From Podarcis gaigeae (lineage: Eukaryota), in NCBI GenBank assembly GCA_964106915.2, contig OZ066922.1: a stretch of 64,000 nucleotides of DNA. One strand, written 5' to 3'. Shown here one piece after another: positions 17,980-59,472 of the stretch (the first letter of the stretch is position 1; each line of letters begins with the position of its first letter). Below the pieces are notes generated by a model. It ran no database searches and had not been told where the DNA came from. It worked only from the letters and a program-made list of their open reading frames with translations. Position numbers and translations under genes: made by a program.

Positions 17980-18716
17980 TATACTGAGTTAGACCTCGGC
18001 TAATGTATTTGTCCGCAGTGACTGAGGCTCTCTCTCTGGAATCTGAGATACGAGTCTTCCTTAGCGCTACTTGGAGATGCCAGGAATTGTTCTACCATTG
18101 AGCCACATAGCTAATTTTGTTCTCCACTGCTAAGTGGCCACTAGATTTCTGTATCACTGGTTATTATAAAGCAGCTGAATGTTTGAATTGACTCCCCTGA
18201 AGCACACAGCATTTCAGGTGATACAAGGACAAAATGAAAGTTCTGTCTGTGGCATTCAGGGCAAGGAGAGAACAATGAAAAGGAGAGGATGATGGTGAAT
18301 GAGTGAGGCATGGATTACAGAAGCACAGCAAGGAGGAAAAATAGGAGCAATACCTTACAGACAGGCTGGAAACGGAAAACAAAAAGTGATAGGGAGCAAG
18401 CAACATTTTTATTTATTTCATCATTTCAGACATTTATACCCTATCATTTAAATGACTTTCCTGGGATGCCTTATGATAAAATATAACTATTTTAACTAGA
18501 ATGGGGAAAGAATTTGGGTTATGTTGAATAGGAGCAATCTTCCAAACTTACACCTCTCTATGATTTAAGGCAAAAATAGTCACTTTTATAGAGCACTCCT
18601 TCCTTATGATCGTAACAATTTTTACAGCACTTCAATCTATTGAATTTATTTGTTCATTCTTTTTTAAAGGAAAGAACACGTTGAACAAAAAGTATGAACA
18701 TGCTTAAAATGCTTAC

Positions 18717-18737
18717 CTATGTCTAAAATCTTTATTT
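18717..18737 (-). CDS. TENM3: Teneurin-3 alternative micro-exon, splice site B (NKDFRHS), 21 nt, phase 2->2
   Basis: Long pyrimidine tract...CCAAG|AAATAAAGATTTTAGACATAG|GTAAGC; known NHL-domain insert. Confidence 0.93.
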
Positions 18738-19098
18738 CTTGGTGGGAAGGCAAGGAAAGGAAGAGTAAAAAAAAACAACAGTATTAGAAAAAAAAGTTAG
18801 ATGAAAAGTTGTTAAAAGAGGGAACAGTAAATAGGTAATGATGCTGATAAGGTTGCTGATTGTAATTCCATTCAGTCATTTTTTATCATCTGAATAGCAG
18901 AGATATTTTGACAGCTATCTCCATGAGTAAATGGCTTGAGAAAATGTCCCATCTTTCTTCAACCTCATTTTAAAATATTATTTTTAAAGCATTTGCATTT
19001 TTATTACAGTGTTCAGGTGTATATGGAAACATGGTATCATAAAATGACTGATTCATCACATAATCTCGAAACCAAATGTTTTAGGAGTAAAGATATAC

Positions 19099-19348
19099 CT
19101 TAGTTCAAGAACACTTGTTACATTTCCAGATGGGAATATCCGTCGAACATAGTTAAAATCCCCTACGTACAGGCTTCCATCAATACCACAAGCTAAGGCA
19201 ACGGGAGCCAAAAGCTTATTGCCATCTGCTTGACCATTGCAACTTGGGCAAGAAATGCTACGTCGTCGACCATTGCCCATTATACTACTGACAACTGGTG
19301 GCTGCTGAGAGATGAACTGATTTTCCCCATTGCCTTTGTAGAGGATTC
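19099..19348 (-). CDS. TENM3: Teneurin-3 exon, start of NHL propeller ([12 protein letters not shown]...TSVLEL); 250 nt
   Basis: TTTTCTCCAG acceptor, AG|GTATAT donor; [15 protein letters not shown] motif. Confidence 0.96.
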
Positions 19349-22300: not shown

Positions 22301-22937
22301 TTGAAACATGGATTTTTATCAGAGATTTAAGGGGGGGAATGCAGTAAATACCAGAGATTTAAAAGAAGTAAAAGAATAAAAGAAGAGTTGGAATTAAAGA
22401 ATAAAGATATGTAAAAATGAGTAAAGGAAAGTTAATGAAGCAAGGAAGAACCATTGGAAATGGCAGGAAAATGGATGAAGTTATTTCCTGCATACGAGTG
22501 CCAATTCTGTTGTGGACTAAAAACCTCTCCCACCCATAACATATTTGTATAAAATACATTTCCCCACCAAATATTCGAATTGACAATGAGAGGCTTAGGA
22601 AACACTTATTTATTTGCATAGAAATACAGGAGTAATCATGCTAGTGAGGCAAAAGAGCAGCAATAATGCTAGCTGTACTTGACACAGTTCCATGGAAACT
22701 GTGGGGGGAGACTAGGCACAGCATAATGATTTTATGTAGTATGAAGAAGAAAACATTTCCTGGTGTTGGCATGGAATGAAGTTATGCTCATAAATTCAAC
22801 ATTAATTCAAATTAAAGAATAATTCTAGGATAGTCATGAATGTGTATTACTCATAACTTTTGCGTGACAGACAATGAATTAATTACATAGTCAGTATGAG
22901 TCCAGAAAAAAAATATTAAAATAAAATGGAGACTTAC

Positions 22938-23081
22938 CATTCTGAACATCCAGGACGTGGTGCTTATCTAGGGTCCAGCCCCCCATGTTGGAAGCATCCA
23001 ATTCATAGCCTTGTAAAATAGCTGTCCGTTTTTCCCACAGTGTTAGATCCAAACAAGATTCATATTCATAACCTACAGATA
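22938..23081 (-). CDS. TENM3: Teneurin-3 exon ([48 protein letters not shown]); 144 nt
   Basis: Not in ORF track; translated by hand; TTCCAG acceptor, G|GTAAGT donor. Confidence 0.95.
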
Positions 23082-23100
23082 CTGGAATTAAAAATAAAAA

Positions 23101-23103
<3 letters not shown>

Positions 23104-23150
<47 letters not shown>
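23104..23150. repeat. (ATT)n microsatellite in the acceptor region of the 144-nt exon
   Basis: Direct reading. Confidence 0.95.
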
Positions 23151-23152
<2 letters not shown>

Positions 23153-23310
23153 ACTACCCTTCCTCTCTTGATACCTGAAGACAGGTTCTAAGTACTTTCA
23201 CTGAACAGGGTTTCCAATTACAGGGAAGTTTCTTTGCATGTTAACATAACACACTTAGAATATTAGTTTTTCCTCTGGGTTAGTGTTAGATACAATCTAG
23301 GAAATATATA

Positions 23311-23479
23311 CCGTATTTTTTGCACCATAACACTCACTTTTTTCCTCCTAGAAAGTAAGGGGAAATGTCTGTGCGTGTTATGGAGGAAATGCCTACGGGT
23401 GGCATGCCTACGGATTTTCCTCCTCTAAAAACTACGTGCGTGTTATGGTCGGGTGCATGTTATAGAGCGAAAAATATGG
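23311..23479. mobile_element. Tc1/mariner-type MITE (CCGTATTTT TIR family)
   Basis: CCGTATTTTTTGC...GCGAAAAATATGG flanked by TA on both sides. Confidence 0.8.
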
Positions 23480-24211
23480 TATTTATAATTTTCAACAAAT
23501 CTTTTGCAGGGATAGAGGTGACACACCTGTATAGCCTGCTTGGCTAGAATTAGTTCAGGAGTCCCATGCACTGTGTCAACCCTAGCAATTATTCAGGGAG
23601 CAAATTTTAATCTGTGACTGAAGTTTCAGTCAATTAATTGTACTGACTGATTAAAGCTTGAAGCTCTATATACACATGATATATTGATGCTCCCTTGAAA
23701 TAATTTAAAGCCTTGAGTTGTTGAAAAACACCAGATGTTTAATAGCAATTTAAGGCAATTAAAATCATTTTGTTTTTTGAAAGCACCACAGGCAGTCCAA
23801 GGCTTTGTCTGTGAAAATGATGGTGCAACTATTTTCCCCATCTTAGTCTGTCTCAGACCTGATCAACACAGTCCTCACAATTTGTTACTTCCAGGTACTA
23901 GTTTAGTTAGATGTGATAATTACAAACGAAGTGTAATTCCTTTGTGATTTTAAAGTTCCATTCTTTTTATAAAAATGAAAAAATATGTCTATAACACATT
24001 TCAACTCTAAGAAGAGCCCTCAAGTCAGCTTACAACAATTTACTGTTAAAAGTAAGCTGTTGTAACAGTAATTGTTAACAATTAAAAGTTTACATTCATT
24101 CTACACAGCATACAGAACTTCTCATATATCTTCATTATTAAATATTATTCTATGTTTTCTAGATAATGCAAACATGCAAACAAAACCCATAACAACACAA
24201 ATAAGACCTAC

Positions 24212-24479
24212 CAACAGCTTCAGATAAACCATAGACCTTTTGGTTATATGCGTCAGTTTTATCCCATATGAATGTGTAAGCCAAATTTGGGGATGCAGGG
24301 AACCATTTTTGGAAAAGTCTTCCCACCACTGCCACCATGAGATGAACCTTCATTAAGTTAAATGGTATCACTGACTGCGTCATGGTGATCTTAAGAACGG
24401 ATTTATACCCTGCAGCTCTGGAGCTTAAATAAGACAATTTCAAATCAGTTCCTGGGACTGTGGTCTCCTCATGTAGTAC
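24212..24479 (-). CDS. TENM3: Teneurin-3 exon, Ig-like/FN-plug region ([17 protein letters not shown]...GLSEAV); 268 nt
   Basis: TTTTTAG acceptor, G|GTAGGT donor. Confidence 0.96.
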
Positions 24480-27400
24480 CTAAAAAATAAAAAGAGGAAA
24501 ATGACAAAATAATCTCAACTAGCAAGAATTTTACTGCATGTGATTGATTAGAAACTATCAGAAATACGTTTTCTGTAGAAAGATACAATTGTTTAAACAA
24601 TCATTGGGCTGACTACCTAAACTTCTGAAGCATTATGTGATTTTTTTTTTAGGATGAATATATGCAAAAGTTTTTACAACCTTATTTCCTACAGCAATTG
24701 CTGCATCAATGGATGTACTACCTATAAAATAACTGTTACATATATACATGTGTACAAAATACTGTGATCTGAGTGCTGTAAAAGACAATGGTTTAGGAAG
24801 GAATGGTCTGTATGCCTCCCCTCCTTCATGAGCCGGCTTGGTGCTGTGATCTGTGTGTGTTTAAACCAGAAATTTAAACCAAGATTTCATCCGGATCTGA
24901 AATTCTGGTTGGTAAATCCAGCAGGATTGAAGCACTGCAGCCATCACAGGACAGGCATGCACACATACCCTTCTGCTTTGAAATCCTTTTTATTTTGGAA
25001 CCTTTCTATCTGGGAAATTTGCCTCTTACGGTCCAATCAAACTTATTTCCTGTCTTGCCATGGTTCCTTTAAAAAGTCACACAAAACCTCCCTGAAATAT
25101 ATCCCTCATCAACTGGCTGCTGATGTGGGTGAAGAGGAAATGGATGTGAGGGCATTTATTGCCAATGTTGAAGCCCTCAAGAAGCAGACTGGGAAAGGAG
25201 ATGGGGGAAGGTCAGACACTTATGGACATGCAGGCTGAGCATGCAGGCTGAGAGCTGCATGAGTCTCTTTCTACCTGGGTTGAGGCTCTGGTGAGCAGGA
25301 TGACCGTGTATCCTGCAAAACCCCTGGGAAGAGTTGCCCTTTTAGGTGAGAGAGTAATGGCACTCAGCCTTCACAGCAGCTGCTTCTGCAGTCTGATGAA
25401 CCACTGGTGTGTTTGGCCCTTCTGACATCATCTGTGTAGTCTGGGGCCTCTCAGCCTAGGATGGTACAGCAAGAGGATGCGCATGGAGACGTACCCCTCG
25501 GAAAGTGGAGTGGCACCTTACTTCTTTTGCAGAGATGAGCTGCTCTTCTCATAACCCTCTCTGATTTTCCTGCTTCTAATTACTATATTTCACAATTTAG
25601 TTCTAATTACTAAAATGGTTTTGTTGTATGGCATTTCAAAATATTGCCTTCAGAATATTTACATTGGCAATTTTTCAAGGAAGATGTTTAAAACAGAAAT
25701 TTTCTTTCCTTCTTTCTCAAGCTAGATGGCTGCCTTAGGGAAAGCTTCCTCATGCATTCTGATCAATATTCAACCCTTTCTCATATCAGGAGAGCACAAT
25801 GATTCAATCTTCTTTTTAGAGCCTTTCTTGCCTAGAAAAGTGTGTGGGTGATAGTTAGACAAGATGGGTTTCTGTCTTCCATGGATTAAGGCAGTCAATC
25901 ATCTTTATTTCATTCAAGACTTCCAACTAGATTTTTTTCTTAACCACACCACTAAAGCGTTAGCTGTAAAGCCACCAAACAGCTCCATTAAGATGAGAAG
26001 ATTTCTAAAAAGACAACGATAAATCTCATATCACTAAAATATGGTGCCTCTGAAACACATAAAGCTCAATTCTCAGGATGCTGGCCACCAACTCAAAAAG
26101 CTGCCTCAAAGTTAGCCTAACCTGAGCTTCCAGGTAGGAGCCATCAAGGAAAGATCTGCACTGCTCAGCATCATTCCAGTTTAGGAGGTGCTGCGGACTA
26201 ATTGGTTCTGCAAGTGCATGTTGATGCCATCCAGGCAATTTGCAGGGCAACGCAACAGCTGCCATGGCCCAAGTTTGGAGAGAAGCATCTCCCTTTGCAA
26301 GATCTCAGGGCACACCACACTTCATGTGGCTCCATAAGCTCTCATGAGGGGGGCACGGTGGCAGGAATCATGAAGAAGTCCTGCCTCACTGGGTAACAGC
26401 ATAGGCAGTATTCAATGCAAGTTTTACTCAAAGTAGACCCAGTGAAATTAATGGTGCTACATTCATTCATTTAAAACTGAGCAAAATTGAGTTGAATACC
26501 CACGTTTACCAGGCAAGAGCCTCCCTTCTCCCAAACAGAATCCTGCAATTATGGGTTAGGTCTCTTGAAAACTGCAAGTGGAAGGAAGCTCTACCCCCTC
26601 CTCCCCCTCGAAGAAAACCCCTCTCTGGGGAGTGGGAGGGACCCCTTTCAATAGCATGGCATGGGGTGTGGGTGACAAGTGCTGTCACCTGATCTTGGAT
26701 GGGGCAATTGCCCAGGCTCCATTGCATACTGTTCAAGAAAATGAACCCAAGCTGCATTCTGGAACAATGAACAACAAACTTTAATTTTAGTGTGATGTCT
26801 GAACCAGTGCCTATGGTTTGTTTCTCCCAAACAACCATGTTCAGGAAGCCAACAGCAAACTTTGGCTTCACGTGGCAATTTGTTTGGACAGAAACAAATC
26901 ATGAATGTTAATTAAGATATCAAACTAAGTCAAGGATTCTCTACATTATGATTTGAACAAATCATACACCTTGGCTTAATGTTATCTGTGATTGCTGTTC
27001 TTTTCTGCCACCAGACTGTCCTGGCAAACAGCAAAGTGTTAATAAAGCTTTGACTCCATAACTAGAGTAGCACATTGGTATGCTATGAAAATGATGCAGA
27101 ATGTTGCCAACTCATTTTAGTACTGTGGCTGATTCTAGTGAAGGAAAACCAAATGGAAATAAACTTATTTGTTTTGTTTTTCAAGTTATCACTTACACAT
27201 ACATTATATGCCTTGCTTGATAATTTATTTGAAAAATTACACTGTTCACTTCCAAGAAAGCCTGGAACTGTATTGATTTATTGTGACTAATGGTTTTTGT
27301 GAGAGATGAGGATATTCAATATTATGTATTGTGCATCTGAGCTTAACATTCAGCCCTTGGGAATTATAAATATGCGTCACTTCTACAACAGAAGGTAAGA

Positions 27401-28380
27401 ATCCTATGAGTGCACAGAGTTTGGAGAAAGCACCCCTCTAATTTATGTTTTCCTGCAAAAATACATATCAGATATGCATTAGCAACAGCGCTAATGTGCC
27501 CACACATCAGAAAAAAGCTATTCATATTAGTACAGTTTAAATAAAATCAAGGTGTAAAAGTTTACTTTTTTCTTAAAATAATCCTTTCTTTCAAAGCACT
27601 TTACCGAGAGGCTTGTAAATTATTAATTTTAATTGTTTATAGACTTGAGTTTAGACATTTCATCAGCTACTGCCAAAAATCAAAGCTATGTTGCCATGGG
27701 TAGTATTTTGAAACTAACTTTTGATCTCATCTGCAGTAACCAAAGGCAGAGGCATAACAGTGACAGATAAAACTGGCTCCTGCTTAATTATTCTGTGTTT
27801 TCCTTTAGGCTTCCAGTCCACATCAACGAATGATTATGTTTCATCCCCTTCCACCTTGCAATGCTAATGGAGTAGGGCATTATGAGTCTAAAACACAAGT
27901 TTTATAGCAGAATGTTTTGAGTTGCCTAAATAATATTACATAAGAGTCCTTAATTTCAAAGTAAAAAGAACTCTTCATTTTGAAACATGCTATAGGTCAC
28001 ACCATGTATTTCAATAAGCTGATAACCTTGTAATTCCTGGATCCTTCCCAATGTCTATTTCATTGCAGCCCATATATCCTATGCAGTAACACATTTCCTT
28101 AAATTTTAACTTGCTTTCAGATGCCACATTTAGCTTCCATGGCAAACACTGTGGAGGCAGTCATCACCACAAGGGACAGATTAACTATTGCCATTAACAC
28201 ATGTTAAGAGGGGGAGGGGGGAGACAAAGCAACCAGGAAAGGGTAGGAATCAGGGTGGCAGCAGTGGAGTTGACAAGGCACTATATGTGGGGACCCTAGA
28301 AGGAACCTTGCCCCCAGCCCCCCTTACTTAGAAAGGGTCCTGATTCTCACAAATATATTTGGACTTAAGATGTATTGTAC

Positions 28381-28642
28381 CTGCGTCTCAGGAATAATAG
28401 GACTGTCCTCAGGGGAAATCCTGAACAAGGTAGAAAGAGGTGATGATACAATGACAGGATTTGGTCTCACAAATCCACTCAGATCGCAGCTGGGAATGTC
28501 ATTCTCCTCCTTCTTCATGACCAGGGTGTCCATGACATAGAAGACATTCCATGGAATCCAAACTGTGTGGTATTGAGTAAGGAATGGTGACCGTTCGAAC
28601 ACTAGGGTTAAAGATGCGCCTCCATTTGCCACCAAGTCAAAC
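28381..28642 (-). CDS. TENM3: Teneurin-3 exon ([11 protein letters not shown]...PIIPETQ); 262 nt, phase 2->0
   Basis: ATTAG acceptor, CAG|GTACAA donor. Confidence 0.96.
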
Positions 28643-28768
28643 CTAATGTAAATCAGATTATTATTGTGTAAAATGCCTTAAATTTACATCTTGCTCACAG
28701 ACATATATACAATTTAAATTTAAAGATTCTGATTTCTTAAGTTTGTCAGAAGAAGCAGTAGTCCTTTT

Positions 28769-28771
<3 letters not shown>

Positions 28772-28809
<38 letters not shown>
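28772..28809. repeat. (GT)n microsatellite
   Basis: Direct reading. Confidence 0.95.
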
Positions 28810-28812
<3 letters not shown>

Positions 28813-28920
28813 CATAAACATAAACATGTGTGTAGACATAAATCTCAAAACAACCTTTGTTGAAATAAGGCAAGTTAATTTTCTGTACTGCTATCTCAAC
28901 ATACGTGATATGAAACTTAC

Positions 28921-29040
28921 ATTCCATCTTGACGAGTGATGGTGTACCCATAATCTGGATAATGTAAAAACGACACATTAACTCCGATGAGTGGTGTTCC
29001 ATCTGCTGTCAATACTTGGCCCCTTATAACAGATGCAAGA
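28921..29040 (-). CDS. TENM3: Teneurin-3 exon, TTR-like domain ([41 protein letters not shown]); 120 nt
   Basis: Not shown in this frame in ORF track; translated by hand; CTACAG acceptor, GTAAGT donor. Confidence 0.95.
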
Positions 29041-29359
29041 CTGTAGGGAAAGGTACAAAATTACAACATTTAATATTTTCCCAAACAAGCACTTCCATGC
29101 CAATGTACCAAAGCATAAACATCCTGTTAGTTCACAACGTTGTATACTGTGCAGCCACTGCCTTATTTCAAAACTCATTTGGATCTATAGTCTCTCTGAG
29201 ATGGTTTCAGTGTACACCGAATTACTTACAGTGTAAATATGACAAGCACTTGCATCATACAAATACAGTGGTAACTGATTGGTTTGTTGTCACATGTACA
29301 CTCAGCAGCAGATTCGGGTTCGCCTCTGTGTTCACATGTAAAAATATTATCTGCTTATA

Positions 29360-29600
29360 CAGTGGTACCTCGGGTTACATACGCTTCAGTTACATATGCT
29401 TCATGTTACAGACTCCGCTAACCCAGAAATAGTGCTTCAGGTTAAAAACTTTGCTTCAGGATGAGAACAGAAATTGTGCTCCGGCGGTGCGGTGGCAGCG
29501 GGAGGCCCCATAGGTTAAAGTGGTGCTTCAGGTTAAGAACAGTTTCAGGTTAAGAATGGACCTCTGGAACGAATTAAGTACTTAACCCGAGGTACCACTG
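29360..29600. mobile_element. Intact Tc1/mariner(pogo)-type MITE
   Basis: Perfect 18-bp TIR CAGTGGTACCTCGGGTTA, TA TSD. Confidence 0.9.
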
Positions 29601-30752
29601 TACAGTAAAATCCTGTGCATGTTTATTTACAATTCCCACTGAATTCAATGTGGCTTACTTCCTAGTAATGGTATTCAGAACTGAACTGCTGCATCTTGCT
29701 TGCTAACTCTGCAAACTTGAGCACACTCACTTGGTGGTAGGTTTCATTGGGATCAAAATAACTTACTTCTAAGCCAATGGCTGAAATCTGATAAATATAA
29801 GGAACACCCTCAGTATGAAGCAGGATTTTTATTTTGTTTTGTTTTTTTTCAAACAAAAGCGTCCTGCGCTGCACTGTAAGAATCTTTTTAAGTTTCATGA
29901 ATTTTAAAAGCCGTTTATGATATGCTACAGTAGGAGGGAACTGCTGTTTGGATAGACCCCTACTACGGCGAACAATCTCTTGACTGCATATAAAGGGGCT
30001 CTCTGGATCACAACCAAAGCATTTTGGATCAGTGTGCAAAATTAATAAATTAGCAATGGTGTTTTAAAATTATAAACTCAAGGCTTTCCTTCTAAACAGC
30101 CTATCTTTTTGCACTTCCCTACGGAAAAGTGTTTTGCCAATTAATTTTTAGGCAATCTGTAAACCTGCGGGGGCTGCAAAGCACAGAATTTAAAGGAGTA
30201 ATAAGGAACATTTGTGTTACAACTTTTAATCAACCGCTGTGCTCAACTACATTAATGCAGCTAAATTACTGCAGACACAGGAGTTCCAGAGTAAATCATC
30301 TACTTTCACTCAGTAAGGCACAGGACACCTGCTTTCAGTTACTAGCTTATTTTCAGGTATATAACCACTCTGCAAAGCACCAGGCAGGCAGCTCCTGCAA
30401 TCATACTGTCATGCAGTTAACAGTTCTATTACATTAATTCATAATTTATATTATTTACTGAGCTCAGCTTTAAAAGTGCATCACTGCCTTCCCTTCTGAG
30501 GCGTTTTCATCACTTTGATACACTTCCAACTGTGCTAACCCAAATCAGCTGGGTCAATGAAGATTTATATAATCCTTAATGGAATGCCCTGTTAGAACTT
30601 AGACAGTACACAGTATAAAAAGCTATGTTAAAGCAGTATCACTGTCTGTCTGAAGTTTTGTACAAAATCAGCCATGCAGAGTCCCAAATTTTATACTTTT
30701 CCAACTATCCTTGAAACAAAGTCTAGCAAAAGGAATAACAGAAAACCCTCAC

Positions 30753-30969
30753 CTTTTATTGAAAGGGCTTTCCCCAGGAATGACATGGGAGCTGTCCGGT
30801 CCTATAAGAAAACTTATCCGATCGTAAAAGGATTTAGCAGCTTGCTGAGATGGTGACTGCTGGCTTTGGCTAATGATATCTTGTGGGTCCGGCAGTCCAC
30901 GGCAGTAGGGCTGGTTTTGGCAGGAACTCTGCAAACAGCAGTCAGGATCCATGCAGTCAATTAATCCAT
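30753..30969 (-). CDS. TENM3: Teneurin-3 exon, Cys-rich region ([12 protein letters not shown]...ESPFNK); 217 nt, phase 1->2
   Basis: CTGTAG acceptor, AG|GTGAGG donor; conserved DCxDPDCC motif. Confidence 0.96.
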
Positions 30970-31641
30970 CTACAGACAAAAAAGTTAGAAGAAAAGGAGC
31001 AATACTTCCTATTCATTTTCCCTAATGAGCAATTAAAGACAACAATCACATACAGCAGTTTTCACAGTGTAAATAATAAGCAAAGATATTAGAAGATTAG
31101 AAGTTATTTCAGGCCTTTCAGAGGAACAAAGGACAGATATTGTGCTAAGTAATAATCTGAAAGCAATGAAGAAGAGGGTCCATGTTGCAAATGTGGCATA
31201 TATAAATTTGCATATTAAAGAAACTCGAGACAAAATAAATAAGAGAAATAGCACACACACAACAGAACTGGATGAATATCTAAAAAGTGCATACAACATC
31301 ACAACTGCATAACCACACCAGGGAAAGGCTGAAAACCAGTTTACTTTCCAAGTTAACGTGTCAACTGTCAGAATCCTGCCTTTCAGGATCCTAAGCTATA
31401 AATCTGTGGCTCCTGTTGTAGTGGTAAGACTATGCATCATAGCTGCACTAAAGTAGATGAGAAGACGCCACGCTGAATTTTGCAGGTTTATGTATGTAAA
31501 CTGTTCCCAATCATATAACCAAGTGCGTGGGTGAGTTGATCTTTCTGGAAACAGTCTACTCAAAGGCAGCCTTAATAATATTTTTTGGTTTGTTATTTTA
31601 AGGGCATGTCACTGGAATAGGCACTATACAAAAGCAGTTGT

Positions 31642-31773
31642 NNNNNNNNNNNNNNNNNNNNNNNNNNNNNNNNNNNNNNNNNNNNNNNNNNNNNNNNNNN
31701 NNNNNNNNNNNNNNNNNNNNNNNNNNNNNNNNNNNNNNNNNNNNNNNNNNNNNNNNNNNNNNNNNNNNNNNNN
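31642..31773. other. Assembly gap (132 N)
   Basis: N run. Confidence 1.
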
Positions 31774-32520: not shown

Positions 32521-33891
32521 GATGCGTTAGTACAATGCAAACAAGTTCCAAAAGCCACAATGAAATTCAGATTTCATGCAGATGTTGGCACAGAAACAAA
32601 GTACCCACAAATTTTTGTGAATTGATATTGAGTACTGTTGCAATTTGAGAAGTTCAAAGTATACCAGATTTCAAATCACTGCAGAATTTCATTTCAATGC
32701 CAGCACAGATATAGCTAACACACATATTGCTGATTTATAAATATTAAATAATTTCCAAGGGGGCTTAAAAGTAGCTTTTATGTGAGGTTATTTGGTTTTC
32801 TAGAAAGAGAAGCAGGTAACTGCAGCTTGGCTGCTTCTTGGAGCATATTTAAAGCATTTGAGCTGCAAGTCAGCTTTAAATATTTAAGAACATTTATGAA
32901 GATGGATTCTTTTTCCTTTAGAAGAAAGGCTACATTGCTACAAGCAGAGGTAATTTCAGCCGCTCTTTCAGCTGAAAATATATATATATGAGAACACAAT
33001 ATATGCTCAGCAAATTGAATCTTAATGCAAATCAGTTAATGATGAATACCAGCTTATATAACATAACATAGTGAATACAAACCTGCGTATTTCACACATG
33101 TGCACAACATATTTAAATACAGAGGTGAATCCCCATTTACGTGGGGATTAGATTCCGAACCCCCTCGCAAGTCAATGAAATCACATGGAGAGTCTTAGTA
33201 GCTTACGAGGAGACCCACCCCAGAGCCCAAAGAGGATGTGTGGGGTAGCGCAGCAGCCATTTCCCTGTGCATCAGCTGAGCAAGTCCTGCTGCCCCTCCA
33301 GCTCGCACTGAGACCCTCCCCAGAGCCCAGAGGACATCCTCTTCAGGCTCTGCTGAGGGTCTCCTTGTTAGCCAGAGGCTTGTGGAGGCTGGTCAGCTAA
33401 TGCACGGAAAAGCTTCCCAGTGCATCAGCTGAGCAGCTCAATGAAGTCTCCTCCAGCTACCCCTCCAGCTCACGTGACCAGCTCAGCTGATGTGCAGGGA
33501 AGACGCTTCCCCATGCGTCTGCTGTGTAAGCCCTGCTGCTCCTCAGCTCCTTTTATTATTTCCTACCAGTCTGCTTATTTCTCATTCTCAAATGATCTTT
33601 TTTCTGTTCTACATTTTCCTATCTATCATCTTCTAAAAATGATACAACCTGCTTCTCAGTGCACTGGAAAATGAAAGAAAATATGAAATTGACGTGAAAT
33701 CAGTAAAAAAAAATTTTTTGTTTTTTGTTTGCTTCTGTGTCCTATATTTCTCTTATCTTGTGTGTCTATCTTCTTGTCTTGGTAGCAATTCTTTTGAGAA
33801 AAGTTCTATTTATCACTTAATATCTATACATCACTTAGCACAATAACCTTACTGCTTTGTTAGTTTTTAGCCACCACTAAATTAAATGCCA

Positions 33892-34255
33892 GGGACGCAG
33901 GTGGCGCTGTGGGTTAAAGCCTCAGCGCCTAGGACTTGCCGATCGAAAGGTCGGCGGTTCGAATCCCTGCGGCGGGGTGCGCTCCCGCTGCTCGGTCCCA
34001 GCGCCTGCCAACCTAGCAGTTCGAAAGCACCTCCGGGTGCAAGTAGATAAATAGGGACCGCTTACCAGTGGGAAGGTAAACGGCGTTTCCGTGTGCGGCT
34101 CTGGCTCGCCAGAGCAGCATTGTCACGCTGGCCACGTGACCCGGAAGTGTCTCCAGACAGCGCTGGCCCCTGGCCTCTTAAGTGAGATGGGCGCACAACC
34201 CCAGAGTCTGTCAAGACTGGCCCGTACGGGCAGGGGTACCTTTACCTTTACCTTT
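33892..34255 (+). mobile_element. Full-length Sauria SINE
   Basis: 14-bp TSD TAAATTAAATGCCA; (TTTACC)n tail. Confidence 0.93.
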
Positions 34256-35874
34256 TAAATTAAATGCCATTGAGGGAAACATGATTAATTAGCTAGATCT
34301 TAAACTTTACACTGTGACCACAATCCAAAGAGATTAGTAGTATGTGCACAAAATAGCACACATGCATCTATCACCCTCCTTCAATTTCCTTTTCATCATA
34401 TCCCCAAATTAACTTTACAACAACTACAAATTATTGCTAATTATGTATTTATTTACACACACCAGAATGTGTGCTTTGGCTCAGCATTCGTAACTCTAGC
34501 GACAGAAGGGTAACACACTAGCTTCTTCCAGAAAAATATGTATGGAGTCCAGAATGTAAACACTTCTGGTGACTTTGCCAACATGCATATTTTCTGCTTA
34601 GAAAACATTATCTGCTTTCCTGTAAGTACACATGTTAAGATACAGGTGAGATTGCCATGTATGTCTTGCAAATGCAGTTTGAGAAATGATGCTTGTTCTT
34701 CTCAAAGTATTTTGAAATTTTACAAATATTAACCTATTGACATATTTTGTGTTGTCTGTCACTAATTAAGTTAAAATGCATTTATGATTTTCTTCAAAAT
34801 GTATTCTCTTAAAAATAACAGAGTAATAGACAAATGCCTTGTCAATCTGGGCTTAAACCAATTTATGTTAGTATCAGTATCCAATACATTAATTGTTAAA
34901 CGCTCTATATTGGCAATAGGTGCTTTTGGGGGCTTTGCTCTGTTTGCTCTGTGTTGTCCTGCAGGCAATATTTAGCACAGTTGCCATAGAGGAATGCTCA
35001 AATTTAGTCATTCATCTTTGTTACTTTATAAATAGCAAATGTACATCTGGCATGTAGACTGCAGGTCATAAAACTGTTTGAGATTGACATCTTCTGAACT
35101 AATCAGCTGGAAATGCATTTTTACAAGCCTCCCCACTCACATCAATCAGGAAAAGAATCTCATTTTCACCAGTCAAGATACAGGGACACACTGTTTGTTA
35201 TTTTTCTATGAAGTTTATCAGCTACTTGCCCAAGCGAGTGACGGATGGTTATGAATCTGGCTCCTTCTAACTTGCAAAAATATTTTTCATTCTCTCTCTC
35301 TCTCGCTCTCTCTCTCTCTTTATACAGCTAGTGCATTTTACCAAGTATTCTATTGCCCCATGTGTAAAATAACAAAGGCGAAATCCCTTTACTAAATAAT
35401 CAGTCTATTGTAGTTGGGACCAAAAACTGCACCTGTCTCTTATGGTTCAACAACAACAATCTTTGTTTGAGTTAAGAAAGAAAATCACAGAATGTTCAAG
35501 TCCACTAAATTATCATTATAGTACTAGATGATAGTCTTGCATTTAGAATATCTTAACCCATAGGGCTAAGTCCAACCTGTCAACAAAAATCTAAACTATG
35601 GGCTTTTATAAAAATTCTAATTATACCAGTTTGCTCCCATATAAACACATGGTTCATCTTGATTATTGCATGCACTTTTGATCTTCATATTTCAAACAGG
35701 ATATAACTAGAAACTGTGAAGAGAAAATGTACAAAATAATCAGAGACTATACAAAACCTTTCAAGAACAGGAAGGAAAATATTAAACCTCTTCTGCTAAG
35801 GAAGGTGTAACTAAAGAATAACAACTGAAGCATATATAGAATCTTGAGATTTTAAAAATTAAGAAAGGTATCTA

Positions 35875-36210
35875 CCGTATTTTTCGCCCTATAGGACGCA
35901 CCGGCCCATAGGACGCACCTAGATTTGGGGGGGGGGAGGGAAATAAAGGGGAAAAAATTATTTCCCCAGCCCCCAGAATGGGAGCCAGAGCGATGCCGAA
36001 GCTGCGCGCAGCATCTGCGTCGCTCTGGGAGCTTGCGGGGCTGGGGGGATAGCTTCCTGAAGCCTGGAGAGCGAGAGGGGTTGGTGTGCACCGACCCCTC
36101 TCGCTCTCCAGGCTTCAGCGAAAGCCTGCATTCGCCCCATAAGATGCCACACACATTTCCCCTTCATTTTTGGAGGGGAAAAATTGCGTCCTATAGGGCG
36201 AAAAATATGG
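35875..36210. mobile_element. Tc1/mariner-type MITE with internal GC-rich hairpins
   Basis: 26-bp TIR (25/26 match) CCGTATTTTTCGCCCTATAGGACGCA, TA TSD. Confidence 0.9.
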
Positions 36211-37799
36211 TATGTTCCTTTTTATACTTTAGAGGGAAGGCAATGACATCCAAAGGTAGCAGGTTTCACTAAGAAAACATAATTTGTCATATGTCATGCA
36301 GACTTCCTACTAGATGCTTGAATTTATATATCGGTGTGTGTGCAGACCTATTCAGACAATCATATATTAGGTTGGTAAGCTAAGATATGCATGCTGCTCC
36401 CCCCCTCCCATAACATGCAGCCTCTTTGTTCAAGTCACAAAGAAAAACTCAAAATTAACAAGGTACAAGGCAAGAAGCAACTTCAAACAATTAAACCTGG
36501 CTTGTTCTTCAGCTGGTAACCAGTCTCCCAGTTTTGATAAAAAGGGAAACTATGGTTATTATAGTGTTCCCGCTTTGATTGTGGCCTGCATGAAAGAGGG
36601 AGCAATGGGGCAGCATGTGCAAGGCATAAGGCTTATGCAACTCTTGCTATAATCAACCAAACATGGCCAATCGCATGGTGGATTTGCAATACCAAGAAGC
36701 TGGAGGCACAAGAATACACTAGGTTTCTAATAAATGACCAGAGGCTAGGAATGATGCTTGGGATATTTGTTTTTGAAAAAGGCAACTGAAGCATTTGCTC
36801 ACTCGCTATATTGGGCTGGGTAGACCTAATCAGAAACCCAACAAAACTGTTCACTTTTTTATGCTGGCAGAAATGGACACTGAAGCTACAATTCAAACCC
36901 CCAGGCAGCAGAAGGCTTATCTGATCAGGATAGCCACTTCCACATCCATAGTCCCACCACTCACACTGCTCAGAGCGAAAATAGGGAGTCAGGTAAAAAT
37001 GGATTATTTTGCCATGCCATCTCCCAGGCTGCTGAACAAAAATCCAGAAAGAAAACAAGTGAACCTCCAAGCTAAACACATCCCATTAGTCTTGCAAGGC
37101 TAGGATGGCAAATTTTTGTAAGACAAAAATGTGGCCCAGGGGTCAGCATCTTGGGATCCAATCTGTTGAATCAGATTCAACACCCAGTGGTAGAATGGCA
37201 GAGCAGTAACGGGACTAGAGCACACATGGAAGTACTTCACTCATTTCATGTGGTAAGTGATTGCACATGCGGAAAACTCTCCTGCCACCAAGAAGCACAT
37301 CTATATACACTATCAGGACAGATTAATCTAAAATAATATAGACCACAACTGGGCTGGAAACGAAAAGTAGCAACCGAAAGGAAATAATTCAATTGAATGA
37401 GTGTAGAGGCAAAATATATTGCTGCAATTCTAAATCCCAATTCAACACCACATTATTAAGGATCTGAGCATTTTGAAGTTATTCTCGTAAATGTTTACAG
37501 ATATGTTGATAAGCATACAATCGGAAATTCAATCAGTGAAACCACAACAGAAAACTCAAAACCATGCAAAGCGTGTCAGTCAGTGAAATTAGCCATAGCA
37601 ACAAATGTGACCCTATAAGCAGGTAACTCAAAACACGGGCTGTGTTTCAATACAAGTCAAGTCACACTGTACATGGCACTGTAAACTGTACTGACCATCT
37701 AGAAATTATTTCCCTTGTATACATGAACAACTTCTCTCATGCCCACCCATATAGGCTAGAAATACCATCCCATCTGGCTGCTACTACCTGCTACTCAAA

Positions 37800-38870
37800 T
37801 CAGATGCTTTTGGAGGAAACTGATTTTCAGTTGGGGTTTAGGCCTGGTTTTGACACAGAAACGGCTTTGGTCGCCCTGTATGATGACCTCTGTCGGAAGA
37901 GAGACAGGGGAAATGTGTCCCTGTTAATGACCCCCAGCTTCTCAGTTCCCTCCAGGATTATTTTCAAGCAAACGGCGATTGTGCCTGCATGAAACCAACC
38001 TCTCTTCCATCCTTTACATGTTTCTTCTGGTTCTGAGAGACAAGGGGGAAGGGCAGCTTGATGCAGCAAGAAAGGGAGACACCTGTGAGTCTTCACTAGT
38101 AGGACCCATCTCTGCCTCTTGGCCTTCTCAGCTTCTGCCTCTGATTCTGGACTTCTCTCCACCACAGATGCTCCCAGCTCACTAAGCCCCGTTAACTCTT
38201 CAGCTTCCAACACTTCCGCTTCTTCCTCTGACCACTCATTGTTTCCCCACCACCAATCCCCATGGTCTGAACCTTCTTCCCTTATGGGTTCCCCAGCTGG
38301 TTCCTCCCACCATTCCTCTCCGTCCAACCACTCCATGACATACAGCCTAGCTTCTGTTGTTTATGCTCTGGTAACCTCTAGGCTAGATTAGTGGAATGCA
38401 TTATGCACAGGGCTGCATCTGATGACGGATTGGAAACCAACTGCATTAGCTACCAATTAGTTTCCGGGCTCAATCCAAAGTCCTGGTTTTGACCCATAAA
38501 GCCTCAAACGGCTCATGACCGCAATACCTCAAGTACCATCTCTACCCATATGAACTGCCCCTGCTCCTGCAATAATAAGCTGACACCCTTCTTTGTGTGC
38601 CTCCTCCATGAGAGGTTCGATGGGTGGCAACAAGCCTTTTCTGTAGTGGATCTCCATGTGTGGAATGCTCTACCCAGGGAGGCTTGCCTGGAGCCATCAT
38701 TACATATCTTTAGGTGCCAGCCAATAACATTTCTCTTCAACCAGACCTTTGGCTGATTAACATTCCATGGCCTTTTAAATGTGTTTGTGGGAGCGGGGTG
38801 CCATATGTAAGCTGCCTTGAGCATGGTTTGAACTGTGGAAAGGTAGCATACAAAAATGTATTTATGTATG
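37800..38870 (+). mobile_element. Decayed L2-type LINE (RT piece ~37800-37945; 3' piece ~38340-38870) interrupted by unrelated sequence
   Basis: FQLGFRPGFDTETAL and VYALVTSRLD motifs. Confidence 0.75.
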
Positions 38871-40342: not shown

Positions 40343-40610
40343 NNNNNNNNNNNNNNNNNNNNNNNNNNNNNNNNNNNNNNNNNNNNNNNNNNNNNNNNNN
40401 NNNNNNNNNNNNNNNNNNNNNNNNNNNNNNNNNNNNNNNNNNNNNNNNNNNNNNNNNNNNNNNNNNNNNNNNNNNNNNNNNNNNNNNNNNNNNNNNNNNN
40501 NNNNNNNNNNNNNNNNNNNNNNNNNNNNNNNNNNNNNNNNNNNNNNNNNNNNNNNNNNNNNNNNNNNNNNNNNNNNNNNNNNNNNNNNNNNNNNNNNNNN
40601 NNNNNNNNNN
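40343..40610. other. Assembly gap (268 N)
   Basis: N run. Confidence 1.
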
Positions 40611-40837: not shown

Positions 40838-40897
40838 TATATATCTATATAGATATATATAGATATAGATATATAGATATATAAATGTATATATATG
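40838..40897. repeat. AT-rich (ATATAG)n-like microsatellite
   Basis: Direct reading. Confidence 0.85.
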
Positions 40898-46603: not shown

Positions 46604-47649
46604 CTAGAATAAAAAAGAAAAATACTAACTATCCTGTTTTGCGCACAGCTTTTCAACATGACTGTAAGCTAAGATGTCATGCTAGGGGTAAAATAATTGA
46701 CCAGGTATTAAAAATACCTCCCTACCACTTAAAATGAAATTTAAATAAAACTTGCAGGCAAAGCTGCGACACAAATTCCAATGGCTAATTCCATGAAACA
46801 CAAGCTGGTGAATTCATACTCAGATTTGGGCACAATGACTGATGCACTGGAGAAATTTCATAATTTTTAGCCTTGAAAACTTACAAAGGTTGTTATGCTC
46901 ACTGTGCTATGAATATTCTTGGTGATGTTTTGGCAGTAGTTATCACCAGATGTAATTTAGTACCAGAAATCTACTGCATGATACAAGATTGGGTAGAGAA
47001 GGAACAAGTAACAGGAGACTCCTGAGTATATTTCAGCTACCTCAAAATCACTTAAGGTCCCACCTCTCTAATATTTGAAACTGAATTTCCTCCTTTGGTT
47101 CCAAAGGGGACCCAAAGCCTTATCCTGGTCCTCTGAAACACTCCCCCACCCCAAACCTCTCTAACATATTTTGCTCCACCAATATCAGAGCTCCAACATT
47201 GCTAGGGCCACAGATGTTGCTACAGATGTGGAGAGGGAGCTATGTTGGCTCTCCAATCATGGAGTTATCTACATGATGTATTCTACGACCCCAGGTCAAA
47301 GGATTGCAGTCCTAGGAGATAAAAAGAATACCAGACACAGAGATTACTCTTAGAGATGGATTTTAGTGCTAACTAGTAAATACGGTCATACCTTGGAAGT
47401 CGAATGGAATCCATTCTGGAAGTCTGTTAGACTTCCAAAATGTTCAGAAACCAAAGCACGGATTCTGATTGGCTGCAGGAGCGTCCTGCAGCCAATCGGA
47501 AGTCACACCAGACATTCGGCTTCCGAAAATTGTTCAAAAACCGGAACACTCACTTCCAGTTACAGATAGGTAGCCGTGTTGGTCTGCCATAGTCAAAACA
47601 AAAAAAATTCCTTCCAGTAGCACCTTAAAGACCAACTAAGTTAGTTCTT

Positions 47650-47689
47650 GGTATGAGCTTTCGTGTGCATGCACGCTTCTTCAGATACC
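47650..47689 (-). ncRNA. Second hammerhead motif (TENM3-sense strand), one stem II mismatch
   Basis: Reverse complement reads GGTATCTGAAGAAGCGTGCATGCACACGAAAGCTCATACC. Confidence 0.65.
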
Positions 47690-47700
47690 TGAAGGAACAA

Positions 47701-47740
47701 GGTATCTGAAGAAGTGTGCATGCACACGAAAGCTCATACC
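47701..47740 (+). ncRNA. Minimal type I hammerhead ribozyme motif
   Basis: GGTAT-CTGAAGA-A-GTGTG CATG CACAC-GAAA-GC-TC-ATACC: stem I, CUGANGA, stem II, GAAA, UH site. Confidence 0.75.
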
Positions 47741-50494
47741 AAGAACTAACTTAGTTGGTCTTTAAGGTGCTACTGGAAGGATTTTTTTTTTGTTTTGACT
47801 CACTTCCAGGTTTTGATCGTTTGGGAGCTGAATTGTTCGGGAGCCAAGGCGTTCAGGATCCAAGGTATGACTGTAAATGCTTAGGGTGACATGTGCTGCT
47901 GTGTGTGGTGGTAAGGATTTTGCTTTGTGATTGAAGGCAAATAGGCCAGCAAAGCTGTTTAGGGCTTGAGCATTAGTTTTGTGATGAAGCATTAAATAAA
48001 CCATTATTGAAAATTAATTACTATATTTCCTTTAATCTTGTGGTAGCCTTACAATTAATGCCATTTGGGACTTGACCAGAAAGGATGGAGGCAGTCTCCT
48101 TGTGATAGTTCTGCTTAATGCCCAAAGAGTCATGAAACCAATTATCATAAAGGAAGGAAAAGAAAGAAAATAAGACAAGCTTTTCTCAAAAGAAACGTAG
48201 CAACCTGTTAAAACATTCAGAAAACTAGGAAGCTGATATCAGCATATCCTAACATGACTGCAGAGTAACTCTGTGGTAGAAAACTGTGCAAGTATGTAGC
48301 AGTAGCTACGCTTAGTTATGTGATCTTTCATAACCTCCACGCAGGCCTGAATTGAAACTATTTGTCTACATTAATTGTAATTAGTGTCACATTACTGTAA
48401 ATTCAGTCACATAATATCTTCAGTTTCACATGCAATACCTAATATTTTCAGAATTGACAGATGGTATTTCTGTTTTCCCAAGTCTTCTCTTTTATTATCA
48501 AAATACTGTCATTTTCTGAAGTGTTCAAAGTTCTGTGCTGACAGAGGCCTTTATTTCTTCCCACAGAGAATGCTTACTCTTCACTTTCTAATTCTGCAGA
48601 AGTAAGAATAATTCTGAATTTGAACCTACAATTGTAATAGATTGCACTTTTTCTTGCATAGCTTGTAGAGTGCCAGACCAGCTGTATTCTTTGAACATTT
48701 TGTCCTCTCGTATATCTATCAATTTCCTGTGCAATAGCTGCTACTAACTTCAATGTCTTCGCAGCACGTCTGCAATTTTAAAACTTACAAACTTCCTTCG
48801 TGCAGGCTTTTTTTAAAAAAACTACTTGTGTAAAGTTCTATGTTCCCCATTTAAATCTGGTAAGAGCATTTATGTTTTTATTGTAACATTTCAAATAGGA
48901 TTAGAGTAGACTTTGGACTACTTAACTGCTAATTAGCTATCAGTATGAAGGCAGCTAAGTGCTATTTATGTGCCTTGTTAAAACCATGTACAATCATATA
49001 TGTACATGGCTCCATGGCACAGAATTCCTGTCTTATTTATAGTGCCATTTAAAACAAGCTTTTAAAATCTCGCCATTACTCACACCATTTTTTGATGTTA
49101 ACGTGCAGGAGAACAAACTTCCAGCAGCTTCATCTAGCAAGATATATCTAGTAACAAACAATAGGCTGCTTGAGAAGCTACAGGTTCTGTTGCATTAGGC
49201 CTGAACCAGCAGTAGCTCCCTATTCTAAAATCTGTCTGTGCTTTCAGTTTCAAATAGTCTTCCCTGGAGCCATAACCTTCAAAAAGCCCCCTAGTCACCC
49301 AGCTTTGCCTTCTTGCCCCCACAGACTTGACAAGTACACAATCTCTGTACTTCCACGAGCCCAGCAATTCAGTACAAATAATCCTGACTTTGCCTCCCAA
49401 TTGATGGGAGGTGCAAAAAACAGGATTCAAGTAATCCAGACTAGTCTGCTACTAGATGTCTCCAACTGCTTTCTGCCTAGCTCCACAAATCCAAAGGTCA
49501 ATTCATTCTAAACAGCTTAGCCTTCTTGTAGGAAACAGAGAACTCAGGGAAGTCCCAGTTAACTATTCATGTCTCCTTAAGTTGTTTTTCCTCATACGCT
49601 GAGATGCATTCCACTAATGATATGCTTATTGCCCCCATCCATTTGAGACTAGGTTAAAATATACATGTCTCCCAGCCAGGTTAAAATATCACCAAAGCCT
49701 AACTCCATATCTTCTCTGAATGCTTAATGGTATACACTCGCATTTATACCACTTACTTTGAACCACATGAATATGTATATAAATATTAATTTTGGACAGA
49801 ACGATCACTGTTTCCACACCATAACAATTAAACAGCTGTAATGCCTCTCGTGAGCTAAGTGTTTGAGCTGCAGGCAAGTTCTTTAAACAGATGGTCTTAC
49901 TCACCCATATTTAACGTTACAGATTTATTTCAAAAGGGCTGTTGACAAATCAGAATGCAGCAGAATTTTAATGCAGGTTTTCTAATTTGCAATGTAAATT
50001 ACCTAACAATAATAATGTGTATAGAAAGAAAAAATTATGAAGCTTTTTAATTGGAGCCACTAATACAACACTTGAATATAGTAGATTCCTACCAACGTAA
50101 TTATTTGCTAATTCCATTCGACTAAATGCGTTTAATGGCAAAGCAGCTGGTGAAGCATTCACTTTTATAGTGTTCCTATCACAGTTATTTAATTTACCCA
50201 AGATAAGTGTCAGCTAAATTGCAAAAACAATAGCCTATCGCTAACAATCTCCCTTCCAACTTTACACTCTTGCTCAGTTGGGTGTGAATCAATGCAACTT
50301 ACATGGACCTAAAGTTAAGCACACAACTCTGCATTTAGTTATAAGCTGATCTCATTGATACTTCATCACATGTCCAATTGCATCCTATAATTATTTTAGA
50401 AGAGAACTTAATTTACTTTATTCTGAAATAGTCAGAGCTGGTCCACCCATTAGCCACAGTGAGACCTTTATCTCAGGCAGATGGAGAGGGCCTG

Positions 50495-56800: not shown

Positions 56801-57758
56801 TTTCATCTACAGTATTCAGTTCCTTATTTGTCATCTTGTGAAAATGCACTGTGATTGCTAAAATACTAAAGTGTTTTCTAAGCTACATAAAACACTTTAT
56901 TCTCAAGCTGAATTCAAGGTGTGAAATAATACTCCAGTCTATTACAGTTTGCATTTATCTCTCCTTCTTTTTTTGAGGGAATAGTTTTCTGTGGCGCTAA
57001 TATGAGGAGGAAAAACATAGCTTAAGGGATATAGTTTAAGACTCTTAGAACAAAGCTGGCACAACCCTAAGATGTTTCATAAGCATATTATATGACTTCT
57101 GTCTCCTGAAAGAAAGAAACAGCAGAAAAAGCAATTCTGGAAACAAAGATCAGAAATTATTTGTGATAGATATTGAAATAGGAATGTAATAATAAAGAAG
57201 CTGAAAAGGATCCTTCCCCTGAGAAGTCATTGCTGTATCTCAAAGAGCTGCAGAACATTAAACATACTATCAAGACTTGTGACACATTTTATGCGCTAGA
57301 AGGTGTGGGAGCCAAGAGAGTTTCTCATATAATCTTTTTATATCTACTTTGAACTAAATGATGTATTTATTTATTATGAGATCTTGGATGGATTAACTTC
57401 AAAACATCAACCCTGCTCTGGGAGGAAAAGGTTTATTTCAGAGGCCCCACCTTTTGTCTTCCATCTAATCAATTCTTCATTAGAGTGGAGGTGTTTATCA
57501 GCTTCTAGCACACTTGCTTTAAGCAAGGTGCGTCAGTCTTTGTAATGAACTTATTAATTAGAGTTAATTTAACTGAAGAGGAATTGGAGGGCTAATTAAT
57601 GGACAAACTGCTGATGAAGACAGAGGAAAGCAAAGTTGATTTTAAACGCCTCCCCCCCCCCCCCGCTAAACCTTTGGGTGGAGCAAAACAACTTTTCCTT
57701 TTCCTTTTAGAATCTTAACAAAACATTTTTTTAATTAGGAACATGTATATACTGATTA

Positions 57759-58097
57759 AAGGTAAAGGGACCCCTAACCGTTAAGCCCAGTCATGGGTGA
57801 CTCTGGGGTTGCGGTGCTCATCTCGCTTTATTGGCCAAGGGAGCCAGTGTACAGCTTCCGGGTAATGTGGCCAGCATGACTAAGCTACTACTGGCGAACC
57901 AGAGCTGCGCACGGAAACGCTGTTTACCTTCCCACCTTTTTATCTACTTGAACTTTTACGTGCTTTTGAACTGCTAGGTTGGCAGGAGCAGGGACCAAGG
58001 AATGGGAGCTCACCCCGTTGCGGGGATTCAAACTGCCAACCTTCTGATCGGCAAGTCCTAGGCTCTGTGGTTTAACCCACAGCGCCACCCGCGTCCC
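57759..58097 (-). mobile_element. Sauria SINE (older subfamily, small internal deletion)
   Basis: TSD TATACTGATTA at 57748-57758 and 58101-58111. Confidence 0.9.
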
Positions 58098-59472
58098 TTT
58101 TATACTGATTATCTACAGGTTATTTGAAACATTTGGAGAATAAGGAGCAAAGTAATTAATCTATGTTTCAATGGTTCTGGAGCACAATCAGCTCTCTAGC
58201 CACCCACTCACCACCAGCAGCAGCCCTGGAATATTGCCCTGGCTGCTCCTCCATGAGCGCCACCATTCCACGGACACTGCATCACCCTGACTTGCCACTC
58301 TGCTGCTCTTTCCACACCATCCTACTGCAATCCTACCCGTTCATTCTTTTCTCTTCCTCCCACCTCCACCCCCTCCCTTACCAGGCAGTGATAAGAATGG
58401 AAAAGGTCATGTTTCCTTCCATTATTATTACTTAACATGTGGAGGTTGGGCAGCCAGTGAGTGGCACAGTGATGCTCCAACCATACCCACCATGTTCAAC
58501 CCCCTTCCAATGCCTCCGAACCTGCAGGGGCCCCGAGTTTTTGGGGGAAACGATGATGGTCAGTGAGGCTATAGCTTCACCGCACCTGGTTATAAAAAGA
58601 TGATTTAAAAGAAAAGAAAGGAATGTTGTGGTGACTAATGTCAGCCTAGTTATTCTCAGGGGTGTTGACCCTTGGCCTGTTTGCCACTGCACTGCTACCT
58701 TCAGCTTCTGTCACTCTCTGGCAGCCATGCCACCAACACTCCTGCAGCCAGGCTGTAGGGCCTACCAAAGAATAGTGCCATTGTAGGACCCTGGCAGCAT
58801 TATTGTTTGGTAAACTCAGCAGCCACCATCTGGTGGGAGCATAAATGGCACTTGGATATATATATAAACTGGCTAAGCCAGAAAATAAACATGAAGCATC
58901 ATAAGGTGCTACCACTGACTTACTGCGACATCACAAGGTACAATATTAATTTTGTTATTATAGTGCTGCAGGCTGGTACCTCAGCAAAAAGACTGCACTA
59001 CCATCTTTCAAGTGAAGAAGAAATTTGCAGAGGTTTGTTTAATAGAAAACCTTCAAGTCTATGCAGAATGTGAGGCACTTTTGCACATGTGGTCAGGCAT
59101 ACATGACGTGAACTTGGCTCACTCCCGTATTAATAAATGAAATTATTTTACTGTTGATTTGTTAATTATTCTATGTGATTTATGTTCCAATTGTAATGTT
59201 ATTGCTACATATTGTTTGTCAGCTGCTTTGAGACTCATGTGGGTAAAAAGCGGTGTGGAAATATATGAATGAAATGAAATGAATCAAGTCTTGGTGGTGG
59301 CAATCTGCTATCAATCTATGGCCAATTTCAATTAAGTATTCCTACATGTTTTTTGCTTGCATTGCTTATAGCCTTTAGCTACACTGGGACCGAAATGTAA
59401 TATCGTTCTAGAATATTGCCCAATATGAACAGTTAAAGCAAACAGATTTCTTTTTTTAAAAAAAGTCCTTAC

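Follow-up and report, generated by a model that had tools for sequence, protein, structure and literature searches.

A probable Penelope-like fold-back insertion with paired hammerhead motifs in an intron of TENM3 of Podarcis gaigeae

The stretch of DNA analysed here (hereafter the window) comprises 64,000 nucleotides of contig OZ066922.1 from the Podarcis gaigeae assembly GCA_964106915.2. Teneurin exons were found on its minus strand, where an earlier note made from the sequence had placed the TENM3 gene; the EGF6-7 exon shares 97% identity with vole teneurin-3 and 84% with duck teneurin-2, and the insert that concerns us (47560-47800) lies within the EGF7-EGF8 intron of TENM3. Downstream of the insert on the TENM3 strand, an exon matching mouse insert A, as published in the available part of PMC11058771, occupies 42636-42610 at a distance of 4.9 kb, and a second site-A exon, known from a gerbil protein, is located at about 40668-40648, 6.9 kb away. 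The earlier note had put one ribozyme motif about 1 kb upstream of the site-A micro-exons, a distance that has to be given up for both documented exons and that suits only a candidate 21-nt exon (46603-46583), which begins 957 nt downstream of the insert and whose peptide is absent from 120 stored proteins, few of which span site A.

The insert is bounded by a 12-nt direct repeat, exact at the two positions first described (47548-47559 and 47798-47809, both read on the plus strand), which was recovered by a repeat search of the window. An exact copy 200-300 nt downstream exists for 20 of the 62,366 12-mers of the 64-kb window. As the last 3 nt of the right arm are also the first 3 nt of the direct repeat, the likely target-site duplication measures 9-12 nt. 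Within these borders, repeat search and arm alignment agree with the original description of two inverted arms of about 100 nt, at 47591-47690 and 47700-47800, around a 9-nt spacer at 47691-47699. Across their first 82 nt the arms differ by one substitution (47715 versus 47675), and their T tract adds a further substitution and one indel. The insert is nonetheless asymmetric: the alignment leaves an unpartnered tail of 31 nt (47560-47590) on the left arm only, which starts with ATG and constitutes the 3' end of the minus-strand copy. The left arm is a pLTR-like copy in sense orientation on the TENM3 strand, and the right arm an inverted, tailless pLTR-like copy on the plus strand that begins 2 nt before helix I of its hammerhead motif. 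Read on the minus strand, the spacer consists of pyrimidines followed by CAG before helix I, and it is likely the sequence that natively precedes the tailed copy. The 3' end of each arm points outward, as it would in a cDNA primed from the adjoining target strand, and the outer arm ends coincide with the two boundaries of the tail. The whole folds into a hairpin of -190 kcal/mol (z = -26; none of 200 shuffles equally stable), and neither a further copy nor a tandem array of the insert was found in the 64-kb window. The insertion had been called recent on account of its nearly identical arms; this holds loosely, since both arms would have been made in one event and the 1/82 nt difference carries a wide 95% interval of 0.03-6.6%.

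The insert interrupts an older repeat (47381-47875, without assigned strand), recognized by inverted-repeat search, length and contig depth. Once the insert and one copy of the direct repeat are subtracted, this host repeat measures 245 bp; it is MITE-like, with TA at both ends and 17-nt terminal inverted repeats that are 94% complementary, and we take it to belong to the Tc1/mariner-pogo group. Sequencing runs matching the sequence numbered 24 in the list, of which the contigs of four were examined; no RNA run was listed, so these data have no bearing on expression, and summed contig depth is to be read as a contrast only and not as copy number. From about 45, depth climbs to 1e4-1e6 over 47389-47559 and 47803-47875, with loose contig ends at 47389 and 47875, and alignments of further host-repeat copies extend to 47559-47561. 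Since contigs from the unique flanks enter both ends of the host repeat in all four runs, the host repeat is common to three organisms. Neither a contig spanning the locus nor an empty site occurs among the pieces listed from the four runs.

A descriptor of the type I hammerhead (stem I of at least 4 bp) has two matches in the 64 kb, one per arm and on opposite strands, as had been noticed before. The plus-strand motif, a minimal type I hammerhead at 47701-47740, has intact stems (stem I 47701-47705/47736-47740, stem II 47714-47727), a 2-nt stem III loop and H17 at 47735, so that the predicted cut after 47735 is upheld; its mirror on the minus strand, at 47650-47689, has H17 at 47655 and bears a C-A mismatch (47675) at pair 2 of stem II. 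The plus motif possesses the entire set of conserved core, both helices and palindromic stem III; the minus motif departs from it by the stem II mismatch. Both are minimal motifs with the very short palindromic stem III that the earlier note had described, the 2-nt loop being present in each; the palindrome itself is to be corrected from AAGCU to AGCU. Matches with stem I of at least 5 bp and stem II of at least 4 bp were absent from 40 shuffled windows. The loose core pattern alone stands at chance level (6 matches against a mean of 5.4), so that only the full descriptor is informative. The covariance-model check that had been proposed brought no match: Rfam returned no hammerhead family at E<=10 either for 47300-48100 or for a single motif, and on 47300-48100 it gave only miRNA-hairpin models, every score of which lies below its gathering threshold and which we dismissed as generic hairpin matches. 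According to the available text of PMC4209133, such motifs needed a relaxed descriptor there, and for this reason the Rfam result lowers the hammerhead claim little.

Folding predictions separate the motif from its setting. Alone or as a single arm, the plus motif gives pair probabilities of 0.83-1.0 for stems I and II; in the whole insert both values fall to 0, the probability of stem I being 0 on both strands, as it also is in the nascent minus-strand RNA, and forcing stem I there would cost 59-63 kcal/mol. The suspicion that the long hairpin would compete with the ribozyme fold is thereby borne out in prediction, and both hammerheads are predicted to be buried and inactive at the locus. The head-to-head geometry offers a reason: read-through on either strand would make the complementary arm first, which would then capture the emerging ribozyme. 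With the motifs predicted to be buried in this way and no same-strand partner for a dimer in the window, cleavage of TENM3 pre-mRNA by the insert is unlikely. The hammerheads may be regarded as passengers of the terminal repeat. The hairpin may also serve as a substrate for editing or for small RNAs.

What lies at the locus is very probably one insertion, non-coding and truncated at its 5' end, of a Penelope-like element (PLE) that is very abundant; it consists of a tailed terminal-repeat copy and an inverted tailless copy within an older repeat of a TENM3 intron, and its hammerheads are predicted to be inactive. The Penelope-like origin, already proposed in the earlier note, draws support from the tail, the inverted truncated copy, the likely short duplication and the hammerheads together. 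Counting against it, no reverse transcriptase (RT) or GIY-YIG open reading frame tied to the terminal repeat was found at the locus or by two translated searches: the search for an RT-linked frame gave two candidates, both short singleton frames devoid of relevant Pfam domains, and none of three candidates passed in the search made with the tail frame. As neither search linked such a frame to the repeat, membership among PLEs rests on anatomy and motif. The autonomous partner of the insert may belong to the Neptune clade. A search of the literature for this repeat family found nothing by listing.

The insert has three features of EN+ PLE insertions, namely an inverted 5'-truncated terminal-repeat copy beside the main copy, a one-ended tail of 31 nt in a range of 30-40 nt, and a minimal hammerhead in the terminal repeat. 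The exact repeat of 9-12 nt at both ends is the likely counterpart of their short target-site duplication, with no listed contig bridging the empty site. In the portions available, Arkhipova et al. 2013 (PMC3846280) describe as typical a pLTR in inverted orientation, a tail of 31 bp confined to one arm, duplications of 8-10 bp and head-to-head junctions, the inverted copy there being 37 bp shorter than the full repeat, and Craig et al. 2021 (PMC8557442) report the inverted 5'-truncated copy and a 30-40-bp tail for all EN+ clades. As far as these partial texts go, the head-to-head terminal repeat, the 31-nt one-arm tail, the likely short duplication and the 5' truncation are alike; our insert differs in that truncation is extreme and no open reading frame stands between the repeats.

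The ribozyme motifs point the same way. The available part of Cervera and de la Pena 2014 (PMC4209133) finds minimal hammerheads in the repeats of fish, amphibian and reptile PLEs, with opposite-strand pairs 100-700 bp apart already in 2014, no cleavage by the monomer, weak cleavage by the dimer, and an intron that ends where helix I begins. To judge from that text and from Lunse et al. 2016 as cited in the accessible part of PMC6765202, metazoan PLE hammerheads share with ours the short helix I (5 bp here), the extra nucleotide before helix II, the G10.1-C11.1 pair, the palindromic 2-nt stem III loop, the opposite-strand pairs and the CAG before helix I; helix II is 7-8 bp there and 5-6 bp here, and the minus copy here has the stem II mismatch. 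A further comparison is offered by the Poseidon PLE of Anolis carolinensis, whose protein, in the sections available from Frangieh et al. 2024 (PMC11167929), cleaves the two strands of the target and extends both, is predicted to form a dimer, starts reverse transcription at two sites flanking the tail, and prefers AT-rich targets with no requirement for homology, while the hammerhead needs the protein and is dispensable for insertion in vitro. Compared by eye with the same excerpts, the layout of the hammerhead core, the 2-nt stem III loop and the tail between two priming sites are alike, and so is the ATG within stem II, which here opens a short frame when 47747 is A; stems, tail and downstream sequence are unlike, so that Poseidon is another family. 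Against the reading proposed for the insert stand the AT-rich preference of the anole protein and its indifference to homology, the target here having a GC content of 50%. Non-LTR retrozymes, as far as the accessible text of bioRxiv 10.64898/2026.07.22.740005 goes, are likewise non-coding, derived from PLE terminal repeats and equipped with a type I hammerhead, but they form head-to-tail tandems with two ribozymes on the same strand; the insert, head to head with one motif per strand and no tandem, is ruled out as one of them.

The abundance of the family is plain from the contigs, of which 18,282-31,022 per run align to the locus in all four runs, the left arm being covered to a very high summed depth in each. 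In one of them (run X1), summed depth is 45-49 in the flanks and 0.5-3.7 million in the arm bins. Cover of the spacer stays far below that of the arms (8,601 at position 47695), and at 47698, where most contigs have G, a base other than the reference accounts for 5,827 of a depth of 8,112. The two arms carry the same base at 47647/47743, 47643/47747 and 47628/47762, sites at which 24-51% of the X1 depth differs, an agreement expected if both came from one source element. The contigs hold 533 joints; the 15 listed have 13 different left ends, and 10 of these 15 have right ends at 47701-47704, a clustering partly imposed by the reference, while in 13 of the 15 the letters between the ends are undetermined. 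A translated search further brought up an open reading frame, P0119, that reads through the antisense motif, 29 other residues and a sense arm and hence holds a second head-to-head fold-back, with a gap of 87 nt in place of the 13 nt of our insert; the sense arm of P0119 and the tailless arm of our insert break off at the same point. The tailless arm likewise begins within a few bases of helix I in P0119, and does so in 3 of the 12 contig matches listed. Exact 31-base scans found no locus in metagenome contigs and none in viral contigs.

Given that junctions differ across copies, the hairpin was likely remade at each insertion: the fold-back appears to be a recurring shape with a variable junction, likely made anew per insertion, and not a unit that propagates itself. 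The earlier note had spoken of a mini-element, which would be copied as a fold-back unit; that description is not supported, as junctions differ from copy to copy among the 15 listed of the 533 joints and the gap of P0119 is 87 nt. A MITE-like or retrozyme-like non-autonomous unit, transcribed and reinserted whole, is accordingly very unlikely to us. A fixed family of this sort would have many copies agreeing in their ends and in their internal junction, and here junctions vary and the spacer is rare, its depth being below 1% of that of the best-covered arm bins. The excess of that depth over the flanks does suggest that a few copies may have the identical 9-nt junction, and PLE proteins can mobilise pLTR-flanked sequence in trans according to the available part of PMC3846280; yet another base is frequent at 47698, this cover may be native upstream sequence attached to one arm only, and the window holds neither a tandem array nor a second copy. 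Still less probable is a hairpin produced by assembly or library construction (a fold-back chimera), or one that is a microRNA precursor; we find either hardly credible. No listed contig of the four runs crosses the locus, as a chimera would have it, although such contig breaks are expected at so abundant a repeat; the arms differ at three places, only one has a tail, a likely target duplication is present, and P0119 shows a second fold-back of the family in an unrelated record. Rfam miRNA models do score on the hairpin, all below their gathering thresholds.

A role in TENM3 regulation, through pre-mRNA cleavage or altered site-A splicing, deserves separate consideration and is in our view extremely unlikely. 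Its appeal lies in the position of the insert, in the EGF7-EGF8 intron and 957 nt before the candidate 21-nt exon, and in the combination of a 100-bp hairpin with a candidate cryptic exon of 30 nt, in frame, on the minus strand at 47554-47583, with its acceptor in the tail and its donor in the target. One would then suppose that the insertion adds a splice option at site A, the tail acceptor and the GTGAGT donor of the duplicated target delimiting a 10-residue exon (47583-47554), or that the hairpin shifts the use of the micro-exons, a scenario to which we give hardly more than a slender chance; if true, the code of synaptic recognition would be tuned, in a single lineage of reptiles, by a Penelope-like remnant. 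Such exon matches, however, are at chance level, at least one turning up in 39 shuffled introns out of 100; neither of the two documented site-A inserts is recovered by the scan, and the U tract of the proposed acceptor is paired within the hairpin. Stem II of the TENM3-strand ribozyme is broken and the motif is predicted to be buried, and for a family of tens of thousands of contigs a landing in an intron is expected.

Returning to the truncated PLE insertion, the question arises as to how its fold-back was formed. We give about an even chance to staggered double nicking with priming at both ends. The protein of the autonomous element would nick the two strands of the target at a stagger of 9-12 nt, and the 3' ends so freed would each prime reverse transcription on element RNA. 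The first cDNA, primed at the far end of the tail, would halt 9-11 nt beyond helix I; the second, primed just before the tail with the help of a 3-nt match, would run to where helix I begins, which may be the 5' end of the RNA. The end of the tailless arm near helix I could indeed be an RNA 5' end or a splice site. It would then remain to join the two cDNAs head to head and to fill in the nicks. Somewhat short of even, and rival to this mechanism only, is self-priming, in which a single cDNA running from tail to spacer folds on its own 3' end and is extended as far as the tail boundary, copying its own sequence. For inverted junctions, the accessible part of PMC3846280 favours self-priming from palindromes, and the locus fits it about as well, with its short loop of 9 nt and the alleles that the arms share at three variable sites. 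Taken alone, self-priming gives no account of the exact coincidence of the second arm's end with the tail boundary, a position that corresponds to one of the two start sites in the anole (PMC11167929, in the portion available), and with its 87-nt gap P0119 would have needed a long loop to prime itself by folding back. Both two-ended priming and self-priming are compatible with the alleles that the arms have in common. A search by title or abstract found no paper on twin priming or inverted junctions in Penelope, subscription papers being outside its coverage.

The insert is well preserved and, as a PLE insertion, most likely ordinary. The locus itself matters little, being one among very many truncated copies. 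Its value lies elsewhere, in that the insert is a clean example of a step of PLE transposition that is still unexplained, and the junctions of the family could separate two-ended priming from self-priming.

On the plus strand (47702-47800), a frame begins at an ATG located in the stem II loop of the hammerhead; at this locus, a stop at 47747 closes it. An A at this position in place of the local base opens the frame, and this base accounts for 44-55% of contig depth in three of the sequencing runs and for 28% in the fourth, X2. By analogy with Poseidon, the element of Anolis carolinensis, the ATG may be where the autonomous ORF starts. P0120, the second of the unnamed short ORFs from the translated search, carries the arm in sense orientation and, about 70 residues further, short pieces of the tail in both sense and antisense, a layout that hints at a tail-to-tail arrangement.

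The repeat that hosts the insertion (47381-47875) is a MITE-like, TA-flanked element of 245 bp without the insert and one copy of the direct repeat; it contains two internal hairpins (47412-47442 and 47463-47501) and is abundant in all four runs examined. Self-comparison of the window revealed several short palindromes or inverted repeats (35864-36221, 40838-40883) that are possibly further MITEs. A dispersed repeat of about 360 bp, probably a SINE, comprises a young subfamily (4327-4690, 6430-6795 and 33891-34255; 96-98% alike) and an older one (13657-14007, 17547-17981 and 57757-58099; about 75-89% alike), and an open frame at 37627-37989 (+) contains a putative LINE reverse transcriptase fragment, judged by a motif.

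Both site-A exon types of TENM3 were found on the minus strand, AHYLDKIVK at 42636-42610 and DKIGYK at 40668-40648. The latter, second exon has tandem acceptors 3 nt apart and lies shortly upstream of the second of two assembly gaps (31642-31773 and 40343-40610; 400 N in total). The site-A intron also harbors a candidate phase-1 micro-exon of 21 nt (46603-46583, -) encoding ALDKKDH, flanked by a pyrimidine-rich acceptor and a GTAAGT donor. It differs from the published mouse insert A, and its peptide occurred in none of 120 stored proteins, few of which span site A. This candidate may represent a third exon of site A.
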